IMG/VR virus record: IMGVR_UViG_3300044557_000292
Location: 387,388 to 419,707 of that record
Length of the DNA stretch: 32,320 nucleotides
Strand: one strand, 5' to 3'
DNA from: a virus
Taxonomy: Duplodnaviria > Heunggongvirae > Uroviricota > Caudoviricetes
The notes under the pieces are model-generated. The model saw only the letters and a list, made by a program, of their open reading frames with translations. It made no database searches and was not told the DNA's origin. Below, piece by piece: positions 1,334-32,320 of this stretch; the stretch's first letter is position 1; every line of letters starts with the position of its first letter. Made by a program: the position numbers and the translations under genes.

Positions 1334-1375
1334 AGGCAACACGCGCGCCATGAGAACAACAAGCTGCGTGTCTTG

Positions 1376-1384
1376 TGTTATAAT
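1376..1384 (+). promoter_or_regulatory. Extended -10 promoter TGTTATAAT
   Basis: Perfect TGnTATAAT 24 nt upstream of the ORF at 1409. The same motif occurs at 9894-9902 (-) and 30531-30539 (+). Confidence 0.65.
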
Positions 1385-1408
1385 GAAATTGTTCTCAATC
1401 ATATGTGA

Positions 1409-5462: not shown

Positions 5463-5518
5463 CGAACTTGAGCTCACTGATGAGCCCCTTCCATTGACCA
5501 GTACGATCATCGTCCTCA
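5463..5518 (-). pseudogene. Frameshifted relic of the C-terminus of ORF 3014-4087
   Basis: 48/58 identity to 3036-3093 with two 1-nt deletions. Still encodes DDRTGQWKGLISE versus DDRTGQWKRFISE. Confidence 0.5.
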
Positions 5519-8500
5519 TGATCGTTTGACCAACTGCGAGAGCGACGATCGCATTTTTGAAGATATCCTCACGCTAGACGTGATAGCGTCATCTCTTACT
5601 GACGCCTTCATACTGCCGTCCATGATTGACCTCACGTCAGCGTCAAGCGCTTCCTCCCTGAACAATCCCATGTCATTGACCAATCGTCGACCTGCTTCTC
5701 TCCCTCCCCACGTGTCAAATATCGAGTGGAATCCACTAGTGCTAATCATCATGCTCTTGTACAGTCCGACCACGATGCTATCATCTTTGAGAGCATCATC
5801 TATCCTCGATTCAACCGTGTGGTACTGCGGTGTAAGCTCATATCCACGTCCGCGGAGCATGTTCATCAACGGCCGTATGACCTGTGCTGGTTTGACTCCA
5901 TCGGAAAGGCCGGGTATCACGTCATCATGATTGTTGGCAGAAACCAACCCCAGGGTGACGAGATCCCTATTCCTCATGATGATGCCCCTCATAGCGTCCA
6001 CGTCACCGCTAGTGACCCTATGGGCTTTCCTGTGAATGATGCCAGACTCGGATAGATCGCTGATAATAGAACTGTTCAGAGATGACACGTCTCCAGACTT
6101 GAGGGCAGACGCCACAATGCGACCCTCCTGTCTGATCTTCTCCAGCTCAAGCGCGTTAGCGTGATTGTTGACCACGTTCTGCGCTATCAGCCAGCTATCG
6201 TCATCTTGCCTATTAGATGAAGATCCACTCCCCCTCTTCTTTGATATAGCCGAGGCCTTCTCGTTCACGTATGACCTCAGCATGGACATCTTCTCCCTCT
6301 GTGATGCATCCCTGTACCCAGTGAAACCGGAATTCGTCTCCTTCCTCATAGCCTGATCAGCACTGTCTAGAATCGATGCCGTCACAAGATCCTCAGTGCT
6401 AGTGATCGATCCAGTGGAGAGGTCAGACGCTAGTCGTGAGCCGATCACCGAACCATTCTCATCATACATCTTAACCGTGGTGTCATCTGGCTCGATCCTC
6501 ATCCCCTTCAGGGTCTTGGCCGTAACGCTCCTCTCGAATCTTGTCACGCCGTACAGTGTAGACAGAGTGAGTCCAGGATGCAGCTCTTGATCGTTGCCGT
6601 CGATAGCCCGTGGAATGATCACGTGGCCAGTTACCTTACCAGGATCTTTAGGGTCAATCCGGGACGCTCTTCCAATAGCCTGGGTGATGGCTCGCTCTGA
6701 TGTCTTCCCCTTGTCACCAATGACCACGGTGTCGATCGTATCCACGGACACGCCCTCGCTCAGGATGTCCACGTTGGCCATAATGTTCTTATGCGGATCC
6801 CACCCCCTCGTATTCCTACGAGCCCTCGTGAAGAACTTGCCGATCTTATCAGGTTTACGCTCCCCCTCGGTTGACTCTGAGGTCACTGAGGTGACGTTCG
6901 CGTTCATGGCGAGCAGGTGCAGCCTGGCTGCCCTCCTCCTACCCGGGTCACTGGAATCCCTGTCGATCATGGCCTGCCTGTCCGTGATATCACCAGACAT
7001 GCTCATGACCACATTCTTGAAATGATCCCTGAAATCGTTTGACCTCCTGATTCCACCACTGCCACCTCCGCAGTACGCTAGAACATTATGGCTGGGATTC
7101 ACTCCATCATCTTGATCTGACACTAGAGCGTTAGCCGTGGAGACTATGCTAGCATACGTGTCCACATCCATTCCACGTCTATGAGGGCTATACGCCTCAT
7201 TAGCCGCACGTGGATCCCTATCTGGCGCAATATAATCCCCATTATCATCAACGAGCCCAGATTCCAATTGTCCTCCCGGCTTCTTACTCCCGCCACCGAT
7301 CCTCACCGGAATCATCTGGTAGTCAGCGCCTGCGAGATCATGATGGTCAACGGCTTCATTCTTCGATATGAACCCGCTGACGCGCCCAACCACGGCTGAA
7401 TCAGTGGAGTACACGACCATCCTGGCGCGATCATCATCATCCATCTCTAGCGCCCTTCTCTTAAGATCATCAATGGCCGTATCTTGACTCTTCACGTCAG
7501 GCGGCTGATCACTTGTGGACTCCTGGATGACGGGGGTTGCTGTCATGTAGAGTCGATGAGACGCGAGCATTGATCCTGGTATCCTGTTATCAAAGCTCCT
7601 GTAGCTCTGGACGCCCTCGTCAACCGGATCATTAACAGCGTCACCATCGTCAACCGCATCCTCATCATCGGCAGGACCGCTCGACCCGGTGGTCTTACTA
7701 GGAGCATTCCTCTGACCTAGAATATTATGGGCTTCATCATTGATGAGCAGGACAGCCTCCGCGTTCAGATGGTCTTCCTCAGCGATCTGATTCTGTATCT
7801 GCGCAATGCGACCAGAACTACGGTACGTTGACACGAGTATGATCCTCCGACCATGCATCATGTCATCAAGCATCCTCTCCTTGATGATGCTATTCGATAT
7901 CTTACCGTTCTTATCCTGGACTTCCTTAGATGACGTGTCAATCTCGATCACGTCCACATCGTGCCCGCCATCCCTTATAGCGGCCGACTTCTCGTAATCC
8001 TTACTCGTACTATCGGCTAGAGCGACGGAACTCGTGAGCACAATACCAATACCGGTGGAGCCCGGCTCGCCCATCATCCTAGCCATGAGCTGCCTGCCCA
8101 TGTACGACTTACCGGTTCCACACGCGGCCACAAGCTGCGTCTTCCCCTCTTCATGGAGAGCGTTGGCCGTCTCATCCATTGGTCCAGGCTGGATGTCCTT
8201 TGGAGGCCATTCGCCCCTAGGAGTCATGTGACCATCGCCATCATCTTCCATACCAAGATTACCGTAATAGTAACCATTTCTGAACATGGAGCCATCCCAC
8301 GATCCGTCTTGAGGATCTTTGTCATTGACCCCGCGCTTACGCAATGTTTGATCGCGACCTACTCTAGAATAGGCGGCCTCATTCCTCTCCTCGGCCATCC
8401 CCCTGGTAAGAAGCTCATGGGAGGAATGGGGGCACCTGTACTTGCCGACGTTCTCTGGCCTAGCATTGCACGGACTCCAGGTGCCGTCGGGATTCTCACC

Positions 8501-8623
8501 ATACCTCTGCTTCACGTCTTCCCCTCGCTGTACGGGATGACGCTCGTCATGACTAGAAGAATGTTCTCGTAACGTTGCCTCAACCTTCTTCATAACAGCC
8601 ATGACCTCCTCAATACTGAGCAC
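5516..8623 (-). CDS. SF2 DEAD/DEAH-box helicase-like ATPase (ResIII / Type ISP-like helicase core) with N-terminal Cys/His module
   Basis: Motifs AACGTGKS (I), NDEAH (II), MTATP (III), ILSEGV (V) and QAIGRASR (VI). No methyltransferase or nuclease motif was recognised. Confidence 0.85.
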   Translation of the reverse strand: MLSIEEVMAVMKKVEATLREHSSSHDERHPVQRGEDVKQRYGENPDGTWSPCNARPENVGKYRCPHSSHELLTRGMAEERNEAAYSRVGRDQTLRKRGVNDKDPQDGSWDGSMFRNGYYYGNLGMEDDGDGHMTPRGEWPPKDIQPGPMDETANALHEEGKTQLVAACGTGKSYMGRQLMARMMGEPGSTGIGIVLTSSVALADSTSKDYEKSAAIRDGGHDVDVIEIDTSSKEVQDKNGKISNSIIKERMLDDMMHGRRIILVSTYRSSGRIAQIQNQIAEEDHLNAEAVLLINDEAHNILGQRNAPSKTTGSSGPADDEDAVDDGDAVNDPVDEGVQSYRSFDNRIPGSMLASHRLYMTATPVIQESTSDQPPDVKSQDTAIDDLKRRALEMDDDDRARMVVYSTDSAVVGRVSGFISKNEAVDHHDLAGADYQMIPVRIGGGSKKPGGQLESGLVDDNGDYIAPDRDPRAANEAYSPHRRGMDVDTYASIVSTANALVSDQDDGVNPSHNVLAYCGGGSGGIRRSNDFRDHFKNVVMSMSGDITDRQAMIDRDSSDPGRRRAARLHLLAMNANVTSVTSESTEGERKPDKIGKFFTRARRNTRGWDPHKNIMANVDILSEGVSVDTIDTVVIGDKGKTSERAITQAIGRASRIDPKDPGKVTGHVIIPRAIDGNDQELHPGLTLSTLYGVTRFERSVTAKTLKGMRIEPDDTTVKMYDENGSVIGSRLASDLSTGSITSTEDLVTASILDSADQAMRKETNSGFTGYRDASQREKMSMLRSYVNEKASAISKKRGSGSSSNRQDDDSWLIAQNVVNNHANALELEKIRQEGRIVASALKSGDVSSLNSSIISDLSESGIIHRKAHRVTSGDVDAMRGIIMRNRDLVTLGLVSANNHDDVIPGLSDGVKPAQVIRPLMNMLRGRGYELTPQYHTVESRIDDALKDDSIVVGLYKSMMISTSGFHSIFDTWGGREAGRRLVNDMGLFREEALDADVRSIMDGSMKASVRDDAITSSVRISSKMRSSLSQLVKRS

Positions 8624-8759: not shown

Positions 8760-9806
8760 CTATGATAGTGGAAGATCCTTCCTTGGAATCCACACGGGGG
8801 AGGACGGGGCCCACGGAACATCCTCCATATCCATGATGAGACCAGCATCCGTTCCATGGATGAGGTCAAACAGCACGTCATCATCTGGGAGCACAAGATA
8901 GGGAGGCCTCCAGGTGACCTGTGACCCGAACGCCTTGATGGCATCATATGGTCCACTCGCCCCATCAAGATCAAACTCCCCGCTAGAAGCAAGATACGCG
9001 ATCGGGTACGTCCAGTTCCATATCGCTCGCATGGGAAGCCATTCCGTCAGCCATCTCATGAACCCGTGGTCCACGTTCAGGGGAGCATAGTTGATCGCGT
9101 CATCCCTATTAGACGCGGTCACCTGGTGGGCTTGCTTCGATATGAGATTATTCGCTATGTGAGCATCCCTGCTCACGGACCTCAGGGTGAAGTTATCCCT
9201 GAACTGGATAAGCGTCTTACCATTCAAAGACGTATCGGGCCATGAGACCACGAGCATCGCGTTACTCGATATAGGGATGAGGAGTTTGTCATCATCAGCA
9301 TCCCACGCATACCCCGAGTCATTCAAGATGAAGTTCCTGTTCGTCCTCATGATAGCAATGCTAGCCGTGGAGAGAGCGGTCAGGGTGGCCGCGAAGATCA
9401 TGATTCTCGTCGCATCCGGATCTAGCTGATAGCAGCAACGATACCATTCCGTGCGTGAGAACTCGTAGTGGGCGAACCTGTCCCTGGCAACGAGCCCAGC
9501 TATATAGGGCTTGAGGGAGAACCAGTACGACTTACCGTTGATCGAGTTGCCACCAGCCCGTATCGTACCTATGACGTTAGATGCGAACCCCTCATAACCC
9601 CTCCAGGAGTCATCGAGATCCTTACCGTAGATGTTATTCTCCCAGTAGTACTTACCGCTAGCCCCGGAGTGAATGATCAGCCCGTCCATCGTGTTGATCC
9701 ATGCTGAGTTATCGTCATCATTGAACCCGCTGACGATGAACCTGGGCACAACGTGCTGTCGATTGCATACGGGAGTAATGACGCCGTGGCTCCTCTTTAT
9801 AGACAT
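8760..9806 (-). CDS. DUF4238-like protein
   Basis: N-terminal RQHVVPRFIVSGF resembles the HYVPxFYLxxF signature, and FILNDSG resembles FITSDxP. GGAGGTG RBS. Confidence 0.6.
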   Translation of the reverse strand: MSIKRSHGVITPVCNRQHVVPRFIVSGFNDDDNSAWINTMDGLIIHSGASGKYYWENNIYGKDLDDSWRGYEGFASNVIGTIRAGGNSINGKSYWFSLKPYIAGLVARDRFAHYEFSRTEWYRCCYQLDPDATRIMIFAATLTALSTASIAIMRTNRNFILNDSGYAWDADDDKLLIPISSNAMLVVSWPDTSLNGKTLIQFRDNFTLRSVSRDAHIANNLISKQAHQVTASNRDDAINYAPLNVDHGFMRWLTEWLPMRAIWNWTYPIAYLASSGEFDLDGASGPYDAIKAFGSQVTWRPPYLVLPDDDVLFDLIHGTDAGLIMDMEDVPWAPSSPVWIPRKDLPLS

Positions 9807-9843
9807 GTGAAGACACCTCCCATTATCCCTTAATCTATTCTAG

Positions 9844-9938
9844 GTAATGAACCCCGCATAAACGTGGAATACATATAATTGACAAACGATTTCATTATAA
9901 CATAAGGTGGGATGAACCCCCGCATAAACGGGGAGTAC
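9844..9938 (-). CRISPR. Degenerate type I-E-like mini-array (2 repeats, one 36-nt spacer)
   Basis: Plus strand: GTAATGAACCCCGCATAAACGTGGAATAC (9844-9872), spacer 9873-9908, GGGATGAACCCCCGCATAAACGGGGAGTAC (9909-9938). The reverse complements start GTATTCC/GTACTCCCCG and have a CCCCG..CGGGG stem. Confidence 0.65.
9894..9902 (-). promoter_or_regulatory. Extended -10 promoter inside the mini-array spacer
   Basis: The reverse complement reads TGTTATAAT and points at the DUF4238-like gene. Confidence 0.6.
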
Positions 9939-10158
9939 ACTGGGAGCACGAGGAGATCCCAGTGTACTGAAATTATCAGTAATGCGCATCGAGCATGTTC
10001 TTCATTAAACAGTTATATAAAGTTGTACCACATCATATATTCGCCTTATCTGCGAATAGGAGTCGCAATGAGCATTACTGGCCATCATTGGCGTGTCGTG
10101 ATCTTATCCGGGTTATGATAATCACGTCAACAAAACGTGACAAGGAATAGGATTCATC

Positions 10159-12473: not shown

Positions 12474-13298
12474 CTAATCAGATGAATCTTCACGTTTATC
12501 CTCCTGATCGCCCTCATGGCTGGGGGTAATCGGGAGAATAAACGCGCTGGCCGTAAATGACCCAGCTGGAATCTCAGTGAACCCGGCGTCATGAATGATC
12601 ACGTCATCCGATTCTGATGGTATTCCAAGCGTGGGTATGATCTTGTAACCGGATTCAGCCCAGCTATCATAGGCGTCATCATCGAGTCTCATAACGGCAA
12701 CCTGAACAGCGTGAAGGTATTGTGCGATTATCTTACCCGGGCTCATGCCCAGTTGACTGTTCACTGTCACCAGTAGAACACCAGCACTGTCATCACTACC
12801 CTGTGGGGGCCACTCATCGCGGACCTTGTAGCCCTGCAGCTGGAGCTTGTGGACTGGCTTGAACCATTCCTCCCTCTGCACGCTCTCTGGAAGCGGTGGA
12901 AGGACGATGCTTGCATTATCCTCATCTTCAGTGGTAGCGAGGGGGAGATCACGCGCTCGCAGGGCGTTGACGATGGCGGCGTATTTTGACGACTTCACGT
13001 GCTTCACGACCTTACGGATCCTCCCGTCAACCCATCTCTTGAGGAGATCATGATACTCTCCATCACTTGATGACAGCTGCGAGAATAGTGAGAGCATAGA
13101 CGTAGACGCGAGTGACATAGACCCCTCAAGAGTCTGCAACGGTGAACCGTCCTGCCCCTTAGACGTCTTCATGATGATGATCATGCTCACTGGATCGATA
13201 CTATCGTCAATCCCATGATCATCATCCCACGCGCTTGTCTGCATGGTCTCACGGAATAGGTCAAGACCGTTCCTTAACGATTCGTCTTTCTTTATCAT
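12474..13298 (-). CDS. Peptidyl-tRNA hydrolase type 2 (PTH2)-like protein, actinobacterial long form
   Basis: VNSQLGMSPGKIIAQYLHA and IHDAGFTEIPAGSFT match PTH2 signature motifs. Confidence 0.75.
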   Translation of the reverse strand: MIKKDESLRNGLDLFRETMQTSAWDDDHGIDDSIDPVSMIIIMKTSKGQDGSPLQTLEGSMSLASTSMLSLFSQLSSSDGEYHDLLKRWVDGRIRKVVKHVKSSKYAAIVNALRARDLPLATTEDEDNASIVLPPLPESVQREEWFKPVHKLQLQGYKVRDEWPPQGSDDSAGVLLVTVNSQLGMSPGKIIAQYLHAVQVAVMRLDDDAYDSWAESGYKIIPTLGIPSESDDVIIHDAGFTEIPAGSFTASAFILPITPSHEGDQEDKREDSSD

Positions 13299-13445: not shown

Positions 13446-13910
13446 TCATTTTCGAAGAACAACCCTGTTGAGAAGCATCCTACCACCCTGTACGTACACG
13501 AAGTCATTATCACTGGGATCATCCAGACCCTTGATTGTCTTCATGGTCTCACCGAATGTCTTCATGTCCTCCACGGACCCGCGGAGGCTAACAGCCTCAT
13601 CCCTGAGACGATCACGATTCACCTCAGATCGCGGAATGAATCCCATGATGACATTAGCCTCAGAACGCTCGGACTCAGCCCTGTCCCTCGACCCGACCTT
13701 ATCGTACTCCTCAGCGCTCTTCACGCGCTGGCGCACCTGGGTCTTGAGGAATCCAATGATCTCATCATCACTGTACTCGTGAGGATGCTTGCCCTGCTTC
13801 TCCTCATTCTGTAGGGATGACAAGAGCGTGGATAGGATCGTCTTCCTCGTGAGATTGCCGTTCTTCCATGCTGAGATCATGTCCTCATGAATCGTATCCC
13901 TAATAGTCAT
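13446..13910 (-). CDS. GatB/YqeY-domain protein
   Basis: IHEDMISAWK..RKTIL..EEKQG..SDDEII..QVRQRVKSAEEYDKVG..AESE follows the YqeY pattern. Confidence 0.85.
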   Translation of the reverse strand: MTIRDTIHEDMISAWKNGNLTRKTILSTLLSSLQNEEKQGKHPHEYSDDEIIGFLKTQVRQRVKSAEEYDKVGSRDRAESERSEANVIMGFIPRSEVNRDRLRDEAVSLRGSVEDMKTFGETMKTIKGLDDPSDNDFVYVQGGRMLLNRVVLRK

Positions 13911-16809: not shown

Positions 16810-17790
16810 TCACACGGATGGAGATGGTATCCTCCTAGACAAGTCCTCAAAGACTGCCGTGGACTCACGAATCTCTCGCGCGTCCTGCGAGTATGATTCA
16901 AGCTTATCATCAAGGCTACTCAGGACCGTCACCATATGATCCAGCTCGCGGTTGACCACGTCGCTATCCTGCCGCTCACTGTTATCCTTCTTGAGAAGAC
17001 TCCTCGCATGATTCACCACGTCGCCATCCAGGCCAACACCCACAAGCGCGGCCTTCTCCACGACGCGATTCAAGAGATCATTCAACCGCTCGTAGGTATA
17101 GTTAATACTGTCAACGGTATCCCTCGGGGAGATTCCGGGGTCCATGAGCTCTCGGGCGATCGTCTCGTTAACAATCCTAATAATCTCCTCCTGCTCGGCC
17201 TTTGAATCCCTCACACCATCGGCATCAGTGACTACGGACACTACAGCGCCTTCGAGCACGTGGTTACTCAACCCGGTAATACGGAATGCTTGGTTACAAG
17301 AATCAAGATGAAGATTCTTGTTACACCAATTGTTAAGATCATCAGGACCATAATTAAATCCAATGATCGCGTCACGCCCCCTAACGCGCATCCTCAACAC
17401 GGTTCCAGCTTTCAATGGATTAATGGGCCCCGGGCCATCCAGTAATGACTTCTCCCCCATAACAGATCTCGAGATATTCATAACCATTGTTGCGCTTGAG
17501 AGACCTAACACCAAGAGAGCAATCGGGGCTACAAAGACCGCCGCGATGGTACCGAGCAGGTAAGGAGTTCTCACCGCAAACAGGAAATTAGTGAGGAGCA
17601 GTCCAGCTGAGGCTAGGACGACGGGGAGCTGGCAGATGAACGCGAGCTTGGACTTGCGCTCGCTATACCATCGATACCACCTGTGATGAAGCTTCCTGCC
17701 AGTCGATCTAACCCACTTGTCCTCGCGATCGATTCTAGTAGATATGATGCGCGCTTCTTCCACCCCATGTGGATTATTCATCGTAATCAT
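16810..17790 (-). CDS. Hypothetical membrane protein (2 TM, helical C-terminus)
   Basis: 326 aa with a hydrophobic hairpin at about residues 48-105. Confidence 0.6.
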   Translation of the reverse strand: MITMNNPHGVEEARIISTRIDREDKWVRSTGRKLHHRWYRWYSERKSKLAFICQLPVVLASAGLLLTNFLFAVRTPYLLGTIAAVFVAPIALLVLGLSSATMVMNISRSVMGEKSLLDGPGPINPLKAGTVLRMRVRGRDAIIGFNYGPDDLNNWCNKNLHLDSCNQAFRITGLSNHVLEGAVVSVVTDADGVRDSKAEQEEIIRIVNETIARELMDPGISPRDTVDSINYTYERLNDLLNRVVEKAALVGVGLDGDVVNHARSLLKKDNSERQDSDVVNRELDHMVTVLSSLDDKLESYSQDAREIRESTAVFEDLSRRIPSPSV

Positions 17791-18192: not shown

Positions 18193-18795
18193 TTAACGTG
18201 TCTTAATGATCTCATCAACAAGACCATACTTGACGGCATCCCCGGCCGTGAAGACCTTGTTAAACTCGATGTCCTTACGAATCAACCCCCTGCTCTTACC
18301 CGTGTACTCGGAGAGCGTGGACTCCATCCACGCGCGGATACGATCAAGCTCCCCGGCAAGAACGGCGATCTCCGTTGCCTTGCCTCCCTCATTGCTCATG
18401 GCGGGCTGGTGGAGTACGACCCGCGCGTTCGGCAAGATGAACCTCTTACCACGAGTACCTGCCGCCAGGATGATGGCAGATGCGGCCACCGCCTGCCCCA
18501 GGCATACGGTCTGCACGTCCGTCTGCACGTACCTCATCGTGTCCACGATGGCCGTCATGGCCGAAGTAGATCCTCCCGGCGAGTTCACGTAGATCGTCAC
18601 GTCACGACGCCCGTCTTCCGCCTCAAGGGCGAGCAGCTGGGCTATCACGTCATTCGCCACCACGTCTGTCACTGGCTGCCCGAGGAAGATCACCCTGTCC
18701 TCATAGAGTCTGTCATATGGATCAATCCTCAGGTATCCCCCGTCACTGAGCCTCTTCGCCATTGACGGCAGTATGCGGCCATACGTGTCAGCCAT
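18193..18795 (-). CDS. clpP2: ClpP2-like subunit, predicted catalytically inactive
   Basis: DRVIFLG, YVNSPGGS and HQP are present, but GQAVAASA replaces GQAASAAA (Ser to Ala) and EFNKVF replaces the catalytic Asp. Confidence 0.9.
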   Translation of the reverse strand: MADTYGRILPSMAKRLSDGGYLRIDPYDRLYEDRVIFLGQPVTDVVANDVIAQLLALEAEDGRRDVTIYVNSPGGSTSAMTAIVDTMRYVQTDVQTVCLGQAVAASAIILAAGTRGKRFILPNARVVLHQPAMSNEGGKATEIAVLAGELDRIRAWMESTLSEYTGKSRGLIRKDIEFNKVFTAGDAVKYGLVDEIIKTR

Positions 18796-18813
18796 TCTCC
18801 ATCCCCTTCCCTA

Positions 18814-18838
18814 AGATTCCCCGCATGTCTGATGAACT
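18814..18838 (+). repeat. Possible internally deleted CRISPR-repeat derivative between clpP1 and clpP2
   Basis: AGATTCCCCGCATGTCTGATGAACT shares ATTCCCCGCAT (11 nt) and TGAAC with the array repeat. Confidence 0.3.
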
Positions 18839-18859
18839 TGTCATGATTCTCCTCTCGAC

Positions 18860-19483
18860 TCACTTGATGTCATCGATCGTGCTCACGATGTGATCAACGA
18901 ACCCGTAGTCAAGAGCTTCCTGGGCCGAGTACCAGTGATCATACTCATTGTCCTTCAGGATCTTCCTCACCGTATGGCCAGTCTGACCTGCCGTCAGTTC
19001 TGCCATCTTCCTCTTCATGTCGAGGATGAGATCAGCATCAATACGCACGTCAGTCTGTGTTCCACCCGCCCCTCCTGAGGGCTGGTGCATGAGCACGCGG
19101 GTCTCGTCGAGGAGGAACCTGTGACCAGGCTCACCTGACGACAAGATGAACTGTCCCATGCTAGCACATAGGCCAAGTCCAACCGTCCATACTGGCGCGC
19201 TGATCGATGTCATTATTGAGTACAGGGCCATGCCCGCTGTCACGGATCCTCCCGGCGAGTTGATGAAGAGTATGATGGGCTTAATCTTATCCTCACCGTT
19301 CATGATGATGAGACGGGCGGCAAGCTCATTGCAATTGTCATCACTGACCTCACCACGTAGCCAGAGGATCCTATTAGCACTCAACCTCTTGTACGGGTCA
19401 TCTTGATTACGATCGTGACTCACTAATTCATGCGAGCCCGAGTCGAATTCTAATATTCCATTCATGTGTGACCATGGTACCAA
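18860..19483 (-). CDS. clpP1: ATP-dependent Clp protease proteolytic subunit 1
   Basis: FINSPGGSVTAG, GLCASMG (Ser), MHQP (His) and NEYDHW (Asp): the triad is intact. Confidence 0.93.
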   Translation of the reverse strand: MVPWSHMNGILEFDSGSHELVSHDRNQDDPYKRLSANRILWLRGEVSDDNCNELAARLIIMNGEDKIKPIILFINSPGGSVTAGMALYSIMTSISAPVWTVGLGLCASMGQFILSSGEPGHRFLLDETRVLMHQPSGGAGGTQTDVRIDADLILDMKRKMAELTAGQTGHTVRKILKDNEYDHWYSAQEALDYGFVDHIVSTIDDIK

Positions 19484-28111: not shown

Positions 28112-30445
28112 ATGAGAGACAATGATGCTACTAGCCGGGAGAAGAGCAAGTTCATCGAGTCCATCATAGCCGAATGGCAGAGGAGTAACCCAGCAGAGAA
28201 TCTTGAGGATCACGACATCCCCCTGCTCGTGTCAAGGCTACTGGTCGAGGCGTGCACTGACATTGTTCCTCAGATCATGCCCAACGATGCACCGGCAGAT
28301 GAAAGCGCGTCTAGCGTCATCCACTGGCTGTCTGAGAAGGAGAATCCTATCGTCGGCATACGCGGGACCGCCTATTCCGGTAGGCGGGTGGTCGTTGGAA
28401 TCATAGCATGGAGGTGCTTGCACGACGATCGTGTACCACGATACCTGATGGGCTGCCTCATGAGGACGCTGAGGCCAATCGTGTACAGTGACCCCATGTC
28501 AAGGGAGGCCATCGCGTGGCGGATCTGGCAGAGGGATTACGCCTTCGAAACGGTAGACCAGATCATCATCCACGTGAGGGGTGGAAGATTCGTTGAGGAT
28601 CTCCTCAGGGGCCCACGCCTCCTCGCCACCCCAATCATCGTTGAGGAGGAGACTGATGGGAATATAGAAACGATCCCCACAGCTACCCCATTCATAAGCT
28701 TGTGCAGTGAGTACACCTGGGGCTCTGTCAGCATAGCCATCAAGCCCAGGAGGAACATTAAAGACGTGGCCAACCTCATCTGGAGTGAGGCCATCGCCCC
28801 TAACGGGGAGAAGTACAGGAAGACTTACGGGTGGATCCCAACGAGGGCGGTCGTACGGGAGGCTGCAAGGATAGAATCCCTGACCGTAGATGGGAACATT
28901 GAAGACTATTGCACTAGTAGAGTCTTAACCATTCTTCACTCTGCCATGGACAAGTGGTTCACCCCGGGCTCTGGCCATTCTAAGCTCAGTGTCGGTGATC
29001 TTAGGAGTATAGCCCTCAAGGCATATGTGATACCAGAGATCAAAGATCCATCAGCAGGGCTCGTCCTGAGCGGGTATGACGAGAAGAATGACGACCCTCC
29101 TAGGCCATCAAGACCGTCACCAGCGAATATCCCAAACCACGATCCAGCACATGATCCTGACAAGAACGATCATTCCCACACGACCGGCCCAGGGCGCTAT
29201 GGAGATGGGCGATCCCACGTCAGGGGGTCAGCTAATGGTAAGACGCCAGGTGCAAGGGGTGGCCTGGACGGTGTCAGCAATGGTGGTGGCGCTTATAATC
29301 AGTATGATAATAAAACCCTCATCAAAATGCTGAATGCCGCATTGAAGAGCCCTGAAGATCATATTATGAATGATAGAATCCAGAACATCCTAAGCCAGCT
29401 GTCCTCGAACAAGAAGAGTGGCAGGGTGGATACCGAGACTGAGTCTGAGGAGGAGTCAAGGGATGATGACGCTGCGAGGTTCAAGTTCACGGACCGCGCT
29501 GATCTGCTCAACCAGCTGGAGGATCGCATCATAGGACAAGATGAAGCCCTCAAGCGCGTCGTGAGGCCGATCATGATGAGGAGGGCTGGTATTCGTGATC
29601 ATGACAGGCCGATCGCCGGTCTACTCCTGGCGGGACCGTCGGGCGTAGGTAAGACGGAAACAGCCCTCGCCCTCGCGGATGTGGTATACGGGTCAGAGGA
29701 TAGCCTCATCCGAATTGACTGTTCTAGCATGAAGAACGGCGAGATGTCCGTGTCATCACTCCTTGGATCTGGCAACGGGTACGTTGGGTCTAATCAGGGT
29801 GGGCGGCTCACGAACTGGGTGCGTGATCATAAGGCTGGGGTCATCGTGTTCGATGAGATCGAGAAGGCAAGCCCGGAGATATGGGATGCTGTACTCCTGC
29901 CAATGCTAGACTATGGAAAGATCACTGACGCTTCCAAGGGAACCCGCGATTGTTCTAACTGCATCATCATACTCACAAGCAACATCGGTACGGGCGGCAT
30001 CGGTAAGAACGGGATGAGGAGCGTTGGATTCGGTGGATTAGAATCCAGCATTGATGACGAGATGAAGATCCTCGAGAATGACGTGAGGAATGCCGTGGGT
30101 AAGACGTTCCGTCCAGAGCTTGTCGGCAGGTTGACTGACGTGATCGTGTACCGTCCACTCTCTAATGAAGACTACGCGAAGATCTTCATGGTCCAGTGGG
30201 TGAATAGGGCCGAGCAGTTGAATGGTCTCAACGTGCATGTCGATATTGACGATACCGTCCCCAGGTGGTTCGCATCCCACTGCCGTGAGGACGATCATGG
30301 AGTCAGGGTGCTCGGCAAGATGATCAACGATAAGATCATTGACCCGCTCACTGACATGATCGTGGGGACCGAGGAGCCGTTAGACGTCACCGTGTCGATT
30401 AGCGCTAATGGCGAGGTCAGCATTGAGGATAATCCAGACTTCTGA
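28112..30445 (+). CDS. ClpC-like AAA+ ATPase with degenerate D1 and intact D2
   Basis: D2 has GPSGVGKT, FDEIEKA, TSN, a VGF ClpP-docking loop, FRPELVGR and GVR. D1 aligns with ClpC, but Walker A reads GTAYSGRR and Walker B is lost. Confidence 0.85.
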   Translation: MRDNDATSREKSKFIESIIAEWQRSNPAENLEDHDIPLLVSRLLVEACTDIVPQIMPNDAPADESASSVIHWLSEKENPIVGIRGTAYSGRRVVVGIIAWRCLHDDRVPRYLMGCLMRTLRPIVYSDPMSREAIAWRIWQRDYAFETVDQIIIHVRGGRFVEDLLRGPRLLATPIIVEEETDGNIETIPTATPFISLCSEYTWGSVSIAIKPRRNIKDVANLIWSEAIAPNGEKYRKTYGWIPTRAVVREAARIESLTVDGNIEDYCTSRVLTILHSAMDKWFTPGSGHSKLSVGDLRSIALKAYVIPEIKDPSAGLVLSGYDEKNDDPPRPSRPSPANIPNHDPAHDPDKNDHSHTTGPGRYGDGRSHVRGSANGKTPGARGGLDGVSNGGGAYNQYDNKTLIKMLNAALKSPEDHIMNDRIQNILSQLSSNKKSGRVDTETESEEESRDDDAARFKFTDRADLLNQLEDRIIGQDEALKRVVRPIMMRRAGIRDHDRPIAGLLLAGPSGVGKTETALALADVVYGSEDSLIRIDCSSMKNGEMSVSSLLGSGNGYVGSNQGGRLTNWVRDHKAGVIVFDEIEKASPEIWDAVLLPMLDYGKITDASKGTRDCSNCIIILTSNIGTGGIGKNGMRSVGFGGLESSIDDEMKILENDVRNAVGKTFRPELVGRLTDVIVYRPLSNEDYAKIFMVQWVNRAEQLNGLNVHVDIDDTVPRWFASHCREDDHGVRVLGKMINDKIIDPLTDMIVGTEEPLDVTVSISANGEVSIEDNPDF

Positions 30446-30498: not shown

Positions 30499-30527
30499 TT
30501 ATCCCACGTTTATGCGGTGCTCATCTC
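30499..30527 (+). repeat. Solitary degenerate CRISPR repeat (mini-array type)
   Basis: TTATCCCACGTTTATGCGGTGCTCATCTC is 23/29 identical to the reverse complement of 9844-9872, with a 14-nt identical core. Confidence 0.65.
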
Positions 30528-30530
30528 ACG

Positions 30531-30539
30531 TGTTATAAT
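30531..30539 (+). promoter_or_regulatory. Extended -10 promoter TGTTATAAT
   Basis: TGTTATAATGGAATCG, 3 nt after the solitary repeat and upstream of the ORF at 30592. Confidence 0.65.
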
Positions 30540-30564
30540 GGAATCGTAAGCGAGTGTTACCATC

Positions 30565-31011
30565 ATGGTAACCCATCGGAAAGGAATCGTCATGTCCAAG
30601 CAGGTCTTCAAGTTGAATCACGCGGGAGTGAATTACGGAGTGGAATCAAAGGTGTACAGGGTTGATAGGAATAGCCTGGAGGGTTTAGTCAATCTCATCA
30701 TTGATAGCCTCGATACCTCCCCATTCAATCCACGGCAGATGGAGTTCGAATCGTCCGTGTACAGTCTGGTGGTCATGTACTCGGAACAACTTGCTGCTGC
30801 TTCCGCTAATGACGAAGATGTTGTTTGGATTGACCCCCGGACGTTATCTATAGACATCGTCCATCGGTACGTCGCCAAGAATAATTTTGTTGATTATGGA
30901 TCCAAGAGGGATGACGCAGCATGGCTGTCTGCTTGGAATCAACACTGCAGGGAAGCATTGCCGTCAATCGTGGTCGCCTATGAGTACAACCTAGATCATA
31001 ACAACGATTAG
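30565..31011 (+). CDS. Hypothetical small acidic protein
   Basis: Likely start is ATG 30592 after AAAGGA (139 aa). Confidence 0.7.
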   Translation: MVTHRKGIVMSKQVFKLNHAGVNYGVESKVYRVDRNSLEGLVNLIIDSLDTSPFNPRQMEFESSVYSLVVMYSEQLAAASANDEDVVWIDPRTLSIDIVHRYVAKNNFVDYGSKRDDAAWLSAWNQHCREALPSIVVAYEYNLDHNND

Positions 31012-31038
31012 GGATGAACCCCGCATAGATGAAAATAT
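31011..31038 (-). repeat. Solitary degenerate CRISPR repeat (mini-array type)
   Basis: GGGATGAACCCCGCATAGATGAAAATAT. The first 17 nt match the 9844/9909 consensus. It overlaps the upstream stop codon. Confidence 0.65.
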
Positions 31039-31920: not shown

Positions 31921-32320
31921 AGGTTCAACCCCGCAATGCGGGGAATACTTTGACAACCCTAGGCTAAGCCAACAAGCGTCTTGGGTTCAACCCCGCAATG
32001 CGGGGAATACTCCACATTGTCAACAATTTTTGTCCATCTGTAGTAGGTTCAACCCCGCAATGCGGGGAATACCATCGTTCATAATTCCTCCTAGAATGCC
32101 ATGCTCGGGTTCAACCCCGCAATGCGGGGAATACAGATCATACTCGTATGATCATACAAGAAGGAGATAGGTTCAACCCCGCAATGCGGGGAATACCAGC
32201 TGGTTCTCAATTCCTCGTCTATATAGATTCAGGTTCAACCCCGCAATGCGGGGAATACGAATGTATCATCGTATGCTACATCTGTATCATCAGGGTTCAA
32301 CCCCGCAATGCGGGGAATAC
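31921..32320 (-). CRISPR. Type I-E-like CRISPR array, 7 repeats and 6 spacers visible, truncated by the window edge
   Basis: Invariant GGTTCAACCCCGCAATGCGGGGAATAC starts at 31922, 31984, 32046, 32108, 32170, 32232 and 32294, always preceded by A or G. The reverse complement GTATTCCCCGCATTGCGGGGTTGAACC(Y) has a 6-bp stem. Spacers are unique. Confidence 0.95.

Follow-up and report, generated by a model that had tools for sequence, protein, structure and literature searches.

An extended -10 promoter motif in the spacer slot of a degenerate type I-E mini-array on a huge phage with its own CRISPR-Cas system

The analysed window, a stretch of 32,320 nt, corresponds to positions 387388-419707 of a 419,707-bp virus record (G000; 49.5% G+C) and encodes a ribonucleotide reductase, two paralogous ClpP proteins (18193-19483), a Clp/Hsp100-type ATPase (28112-30445), helicases and other proteins characteristic of huge phages, as well as a PTH2-domain protein (12474-13298) and a YqeY-like protein (13446-13910). 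Upstream of a gene for a DUF4238-like protein, the minus strand (9938-9843) carries two type I-E-like repeats, R1 (29 nt) and R2, which enclose a 37-nt spacer (Table 1). Both repeats match a profile built from the type I-E repeats of this genome (nhmmer), and an alignment of the two has one 1-nt indel and approximately 24 identities over 29 positions. The spacer slot measures 37 nt compared to 35 or 36 nt in the genuine arrays of the phage, and like nearly all spacers of these arrays it begins with a pyrimidine. It contains the extended -10 motif TGTTATAAT at 9894-9902 on the minus strand, with TG at 9901-9902 and TATAAT at 9894-9899. This motif faces the DUF4238-like gene and lies 88 nt before its ATG (9804-9806), or 58 nt if R2 is discounted, with a Shine-Dalgarno sequence, GGGAGGTG, at 9814-9821. 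Transcription is predicted to start near 9886-9888, which would place R2 in the 5' leader of the downstream mRNA, and the SF2 helicase gene that follows on the same strand is probably co-transcribed. The repeat profile, the presence of TGTTATAAT and the alignments described below bear out the preliminary description of this locus as a mini-array in which a promoter resembling others of the same element serves as the spacer. Rfam contained no match for the mini-array locus, nor even for a real array of the phage, and searches of IMG/VR proteins returned one weak match for the DUF4238-like protein and none for the SF2 helicase.

Table 1. Features of the mini-array locus, its paralogues and the CRISPR-Cas system of the phage. 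Coordinates refer to the window unless marked G000 (whole virus record).
Feature	Position	Strand	Evidence or remark
SF2 helicase gene, 1035 aa, next on same strand as DUF4238-like gene	5516..8623	-	ResIII and Helicase_C domains; PHROG DNA helicase
DUF4238-like protein gene, 348 aa	8760..9806	-	Pfam DUF4238 below cut-off
R2, family-2 repeat, mismatched stem	9843..9872	-	nhmmer E 1.3e-5; fold -4.6 kcal/mol, z -0.9
Spacer slot, predicted extended -10 promoter, 37 nt	9873..9909	-	17/17 match to class consensus TGTTATAATGRAATYGT
R1, family-2 type I-E-like repeat, intact hairpin	9910..9938	-	nhmmer E 1.5e-5; fold -12.3 kcal/mol, z -3.1
Perfect 11-bp inverted repeat, 11-nt loop, overlapping first four bases of R1	9935..9967		folds as 12-bp stem
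Leader-like stretch common to the 264-kb mini-array	9968..10020	-	~85% identity over ~55 nt, spacers different
Promoter of gene at ~1409-1421, closest paralogue of spacer	1370..1404	+	alignment
Repeat relic (30499-30527, hairpin gone) fused to class promoter (30531-30547)	30499..30547	+	homologous to R1 + spacer promoter
Trailer end of genuine family-1 type I-E array, continuing over record ends	31922..32320	-	
Type I-E operon, complete: cas3, cse1, cse2, cas7, cas5, cas6e, cas1, cas2	G000 244.5-253.5 kb (L013:8537-17508)	-	
Second mini-array	G000 ~264.09-264.24 kb (leader ~264.18-264.24 kb)		in front of Dda-like helicase gene

Two further elements precede R1. The inverted repeat that overlaps its first bases may act as a terminator-like hairpin or as a site bound by a protein; it occurs a single time in the genome, and a role as a recurring operator was rejected on this ground. 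Next to it lies an AT-rich segment that had been proposed as a leader, a reasonable assignment given that a leader-like stretch is conserved at this position in a paralogous module. This stretch contains a possible extended -10 motif of its own, TGATAATTT, at 9970-9978. In IMG/VR, matches to an 18-mer from the leader core were limited to chance occurrences in coding sequence, and a longer leader pattern had no match in JGI contigs.

The paralogous module is situated at 264 kb of the virus record, in front of a gene encoding a Dda-like helicase, for which the IMG/VR protein searches found only relatives of up to 38% identity. Both modules share the 55-nt leader-like stretch, the inverted repeat (partly conserved at 264 kb), R1, R2 and the sequence GGGATAAT after R2. 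The state of the repeats is reversed relative to the locus in the window, with a degenerate R1 and a nearly intact R2 at 264 kb. The spacer of this second module is 31 nt long and differs in sequence, and it also contains a -10-like motif.

The phage encodes a complete type I-E CRISPR-Cas system (Table 1), with the operon followed by an array and then by the dnaE gene, whose start codon lies 51 nt past the last repeat of that array. Three arrays with approximately 80 copies of a 27-nt core repeat are present in total, all read canonically on the minus strand, and the record's "terminal repeat" is one of these arrays running across both record ends. The inserts after the 27-nt core measure 35 nt in 63 cases and 36 nt in 12, and 73 of the 75 array spacers have a pyrimidine as first variable base. 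A leader of approximately 100 nt is common to the three real arrays and differs from that of the mini-array. The same leader also precedes a lone family-1 repeat at G000 17723-17749 (17.7 kb), a unit that looks like an empty array consisting of leader and one repeat without a spacer. The repeats of the mini-array belong to a second family, which is set apart from the array repeat of the phage by both its loop (TTAT) and its handle (TTCATCC ending), and which occurs in this genome only as lone units, in mini-arrays and as the last two repeats of two arrays. As these trailer repeats of the phage's own arrays share the TTCATCC ending, family 2 looks ancestral to the phage rather than foreign.

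Relics of CRISPR repeats are also scattered elsewhere in the genome. At least seven of them, on both strands, are clustered among small genes at G000 63.1-65.7 kb (L012:5170-7670); this region includes a unit of promoter, repeat, ribosome-binding site and ATG at 65607-65675 and, at 64180-64219, a relic pair arranged back-to-back in the gap separating two divergent genes. Between tRNA genes at G000 314272-314361, there is also a unit of two repeats whose stems are weakened.

The core of the spacer is shared with a recurrent promoter class. Its consensus TGTTATAATGRAATYGT is found at 29 genomic sites with three or fewer mismatches, compared to 2-4 in shuffled genomes, and those inspected are followed by ribosome-binding sites and start codons at a distance of approximately 35-55 nt. 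The spacer combines the hallmarks of a bacterial extended -10 promoter, namely a TGnTATAAT motif facing a gene with a ribosome-binding site and membership in a recurrent class, and is thus a predicted promoter. Sites of the TGTTATAATGGAATCGT class are concentrated at 24-95 kb and 280-418 kb of the whole genome with few in between, which may mark one temporal gene class.

The closest paralogue of the spacer is the promoter at 1370-1404, which is preceded by a reversed family-1 repeat relic 43 nt upstream (1307-1333). A gapped alignment of the two contains 29 identities, as previously stated, but over 37 rather than 36 positions, the shorter length resulting from assignment of the first C of the spacer to the repeat. 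The local alignment score is 44, whereas shuffled sequences reached a maximum of 24. The second similarity that had been noted, to 30531-30547, is likewise real, although it comprises 16 of 17 positions and not a perfect 17-nt match. Here, the resemblance extends beyond the promoter, as R1 together with the spacer promoter aligns across both repeat and promoter with 30499-30547 (local score 43, shuffle maximum 23), and a further copy homologous to R1 plus promoter was identified at G000 64208. The relic at 30499-30527 (plus strand; fold -1.8 kcal/mol) and another at 31012-31028 (minus strand) form an inverted pair bracketing the promoter and a 148-aa ORF (30565-31011). The remaining class members match the spacer at 24-27 of 37 positions; on this scale, the 75 genuine array spacers reach at most 25/35 against their own genome. 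While the shuffle controls reject chance similarity, the excess is explained by the promoter consensus, since other class members also score 24-27. Judged by these alignments, the similarity of the spacer to 1370 and 30531 is a matter of shared promoter consensus and paralogy and not of guide-target complementarity. An origin of the spacer from an array leader promoter was rejected, as the three arrays share a different leader without the motif. Five of the 29 class promoters are located within 60 nt of a repeat relic, compared to approximately 0.2 expected, and 24 have no repeats nearby. Frequent occurrence of the promoter module without flanking repeats had been named beforehand as an argument against a guide function, and this is largely the observed situation.

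Strain variants and related phages provide additional information on the history of the locus. In two variants from other samples (L029 and L030), the locus is identical or nearly so, and all differences fall in the R1 stem, including a C>A change in L030, the R2 tail and flanking bases, with none in the spacer. Sister phages lack both modules and retain similar promoters without repeats. Their DUF4238-like homologues (63% identity) carry PF14022, and in sister phage L031, which has the family-1 repeat, the homologue is preceded by TGTTATGAT at normal distance without any repeats. Likewise, in four helicase homologues, which are 57-70% identical and lie on contigs of up to 519 kb, just 46-65 nt precede the gene. 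In light of the protein tree, the simplest reading of this distribution is a gain on the branch of this phage. Each of the two spacers resembles the native promoter of the orthologous gene in sister phages, with a shared 9-mer and a 12/14 stretch, respectively, values reached by 26 and 24 of 2000 shuffles.

Two contigs from RNA libraries also cover parts of the locus; as assembled contigs they are silent on transcription starts, strand and processing, and the parts they leave uncovered are uninformative. A 194-nt contig from a wastewater RNA library matches 9895-10088 without differences and extends from the leader across R1 into the spacer, which is a weak hint of transcription, as its strand and ends, and RNA versus carried-over DNA, are indistinguishable. 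The second contig (run X5; window 9833-9871) contains R2 and 11 nt of leader joined to unrelated upstream sequence, in which TGATATAAT is found 19 nt from R2. It may be an allele or a paralogue whose slot is occupied by a different promoter, which suggests that strains differ in the content of the slot but retain a promoter there.

Taken together, we consider the locus, with somewhat better than even confidence, to be a functional promoter in the spacer slot of a decaying family-2 mini-array and one of a set of repeat-promoter composites copied within the phage lineage. Accordingly favoured is the alternative that had already been raised, the capture of a promoter module between repeats. According to this model, older type I-E repeats of the second family would form a one-spacer mini-array on a phage with its own complete I-E system, with the slot holding a working-type copy of the standard extended -10 promoter of the phage. 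Transcription would start inside the spacer and run through the worn R2 as a leader into the DUF4238-like gene, probably continuing into that of the helicase. Repeated copying of the composite would account for the resemblance to 1370 and 30531, and the repeats would be decaying remains, possibly serving as homology arms for the exchange of slot content, rather than parts of an active guide. The strain changes in repeat stems next to an unchanged spacer, together with the apparent loss of the R2 hairpin, are consistent with this model. On the other hand, a processed RNA is possible in view of the near-canonical slot, the conserved leader, the intact R1 hairpin and the cognate Cas6e and Cascade genes in the same genome. 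The model also does not account for the presence of repeats around native-type promoters of the genes at two separate loci, and the proximity of 5 of 29 class promoters to repeat relics is more than passive decay predicts, so that the pairing could have a function.

One such function would be coupling of gene expression to the Cas proteins of the phage, in which transcripts originating at the leader and spacer promoters are bound or cleaved by Cas6e at R1 and R2, so that the 5' end, stability or translation of the mRNA depends on how much Cas6e or Cascade is present; the ribosome-binding site and ATG would fall within the 36 nt past the R2 handle. We regard this as unlikely, although as more probable than the alternatives below. 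The cognate cas6e and Cascade genes reside in the same genome, every lone repeat inspected is oriented like the next gene, and repeats are found 12-62 nt before start codons at G000 65636, 242130 (dnaE), 264085, 331007, 343157 and 397231. The enrichment of class promoters near repeats and the conserved distance between promoter and R2 in the X5 variant point in the same direction. However, Cas6e would have to act on the mismatched stem of R2, the 30499 copy has no hairpin, polymorphisms between strains fall within stems, and the genes evidently do not need the modules, as sister phages lack them. A decoy of the Racr type, in which strongly expressed family-2 repeats mimic the type I-E repeats of a host or rival and soak up foreign Cas6e and Cas7, appears very unlikely. 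While Racr RNAs can share a transcript with a protein gene, e.g. racrIC1-acrIC5 (PMC10651486), the spacer promoter lies approximately 21 nt ahead of R2, and family 2 differs from the phage's array repeat in loop and handle, the repeat behind the promoter has lost the hairpin that Racr activity requires. Furthermore, no array of family-2 repeats was found in 185,579 species genomes (GTDB), JGI metagenome contigs or IMG/VR, the family-2 pattern giving 75 single scattered matches and no array in the species genomes and no match at all in the JGI contigs, and the TTCATCC ending of the phage's own trailer repeats makes the family look ancestral rather than borrowed.

The preliminary description had proposed a guide that represses a whole promoter class in the manner of CreA and CreR, and had itself raised mismatches in the seed as an objection. 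This objection holds throughout, as identity to class promoters is confined to spacer positions 8-24 (extended -10 and start region), and no class member has the same I-E seed (positions 1-8). A genome-wide seed scan returned 41 and 33 matches in two registers, approximately the number expected by chance, none of which extends; the cas locus of the phage has no partial match to the spacer, and no seed-anchored match of at least 10 nt beside a PAM at a promoter target was found within this genome. Given also the degraded hairpin of R2, the multi-target repressor is not upheld. A true guide of another kind remains a doubtful alternative, to which we assign a low probability: a crRNA-like RNA made from the leader promoter would load Cascade and silence or cleave a matching promoter in a rival phage or host, with the repeat in place of a PAM protecting the resident copy. 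This would fit the near-canonical slot with a pyrimidine as first base, the intact R1, the conserved leader combined with different spacers in the two modules, the resemblance of both spacers to promoters of sister-phage orthologues, the presence of Cas1 and Cas2, and the RNA-library contig across leader, R1 and spacer start; phage crRNA-like RNAs that silence promoters have been described (bioRxiv 10.1101/2024.10.29.618823). Against it, IMG/VR does not contain a 20-mer taken from the spacer, approximately 1 Mb of fetched loci contained no spacer match, and the sister-phage promoters available share just 9-14 nt with the spacer, while the hairpin of R2 needed for 3' processing is degraded. The array protospacers, which had been suggested as a source for PAM inference, yielded no PAM, as the 75 array spacers have no protospacer in their own genome (maximum 25/35), the fetched loci or cultured-phage records. 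The I-E crRNA-like RNAs described so far, moreover, have 21-24-nt spacers and adjoin their targets (bioRxiv 10.1101/2024.10.29.618823). A combination of both roles is highly improbable in our view; in such dual-use modules, the promoter in the slot would drive the gene and also encode a guide against that promoter in related rival phages, the repeat in place of a PAM would protect the resident copy, and the repeats would allow promoter swapping.

If the promoter-in-relic model is correct, ordinary control regions of genes can incorporate what is left of a phage's own CRISPR arrays. On two occasions, upstream of genes unrelated to each other, a predicted promoter occupies exactly the spacer slot, and relatives of this lineage do not have the arrangement. 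For annotators, repeats that are only relics would call for caution, as promoter-like or self-similar spacers in mini-arrays of mobile elements should not be taken as regulatory guides without evidence from seed and PAM. If the repeats are still in use, expression of the helicase and the neighbouring gene would be linked to the phage's own Cas6e or Cascade; to our knowledge, such a link has not been demonstrated experimentally for any phage. As one of few huge phages with both adaptation and nuclease genes, this phage offers a good system for testing such links.

Of the systems described previously, mini-CRISPR arrays and single repeat units carried by viruses (Faure et al., 2019, cited via PMC10651486; Medvedeva et al., 2019, PMC6858448) are similar in that a viral repeat-spacer-repeat unit is intergenic, located away from cas genes and has one repeat just downstream of a predicted promoter. 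Unlike these, the mini-array described here resides on a virus that encodes a complete cognate I-E system, its repeats belong to a second family present in this genome only as relics, and its spacer matches no other virus found and is itself the predicted promoter of the adjacent gene. With CreA, CreR and the viral Cracr (PMC10120712; bioRxiv 10.1101/2024.10.29.618823), the locus shares the mini-array architecture, degenerate repeats and a promoter-related spacer. Such regulatory crRNA-like RNAs rely on a seed-anchored match next to a PAM, with the target usually close by (PMC10120712), whereas the similarity observed here avoids the seed, no target was found, the spacer has full length and the cas operon is approximately 145 kb away. 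The order of promoter, repeat and protein gene on one predicted transcript resembles the racrIC1-acrIC5 bicistron (PMC10651486). In contrast to Racr, however, the stem of the promoter-proximal repeat is broken, no host array of that repeat is known, and the downstream genes encode a 348-aa DUF4238-like protein and a helicase instead of small Acr-like proteins. As in the survey of huge phages and their CRISPR-Cas systems (Al-Shayeb et al., 2020, PMC7162821), the phage described here is larger than 400 kb and carries CRISPR arrays. In that survey, almost all phage systems lacked Cas1 and Cas2 and often a nuclease (PMC7162821), whereas this phage has the full set from cas3 through cas2 and approximately 80 array repeats. 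The arrangement is an unusual variant of the known virus-borne mini-arrays rather than the multi-target repressor proposed previously.
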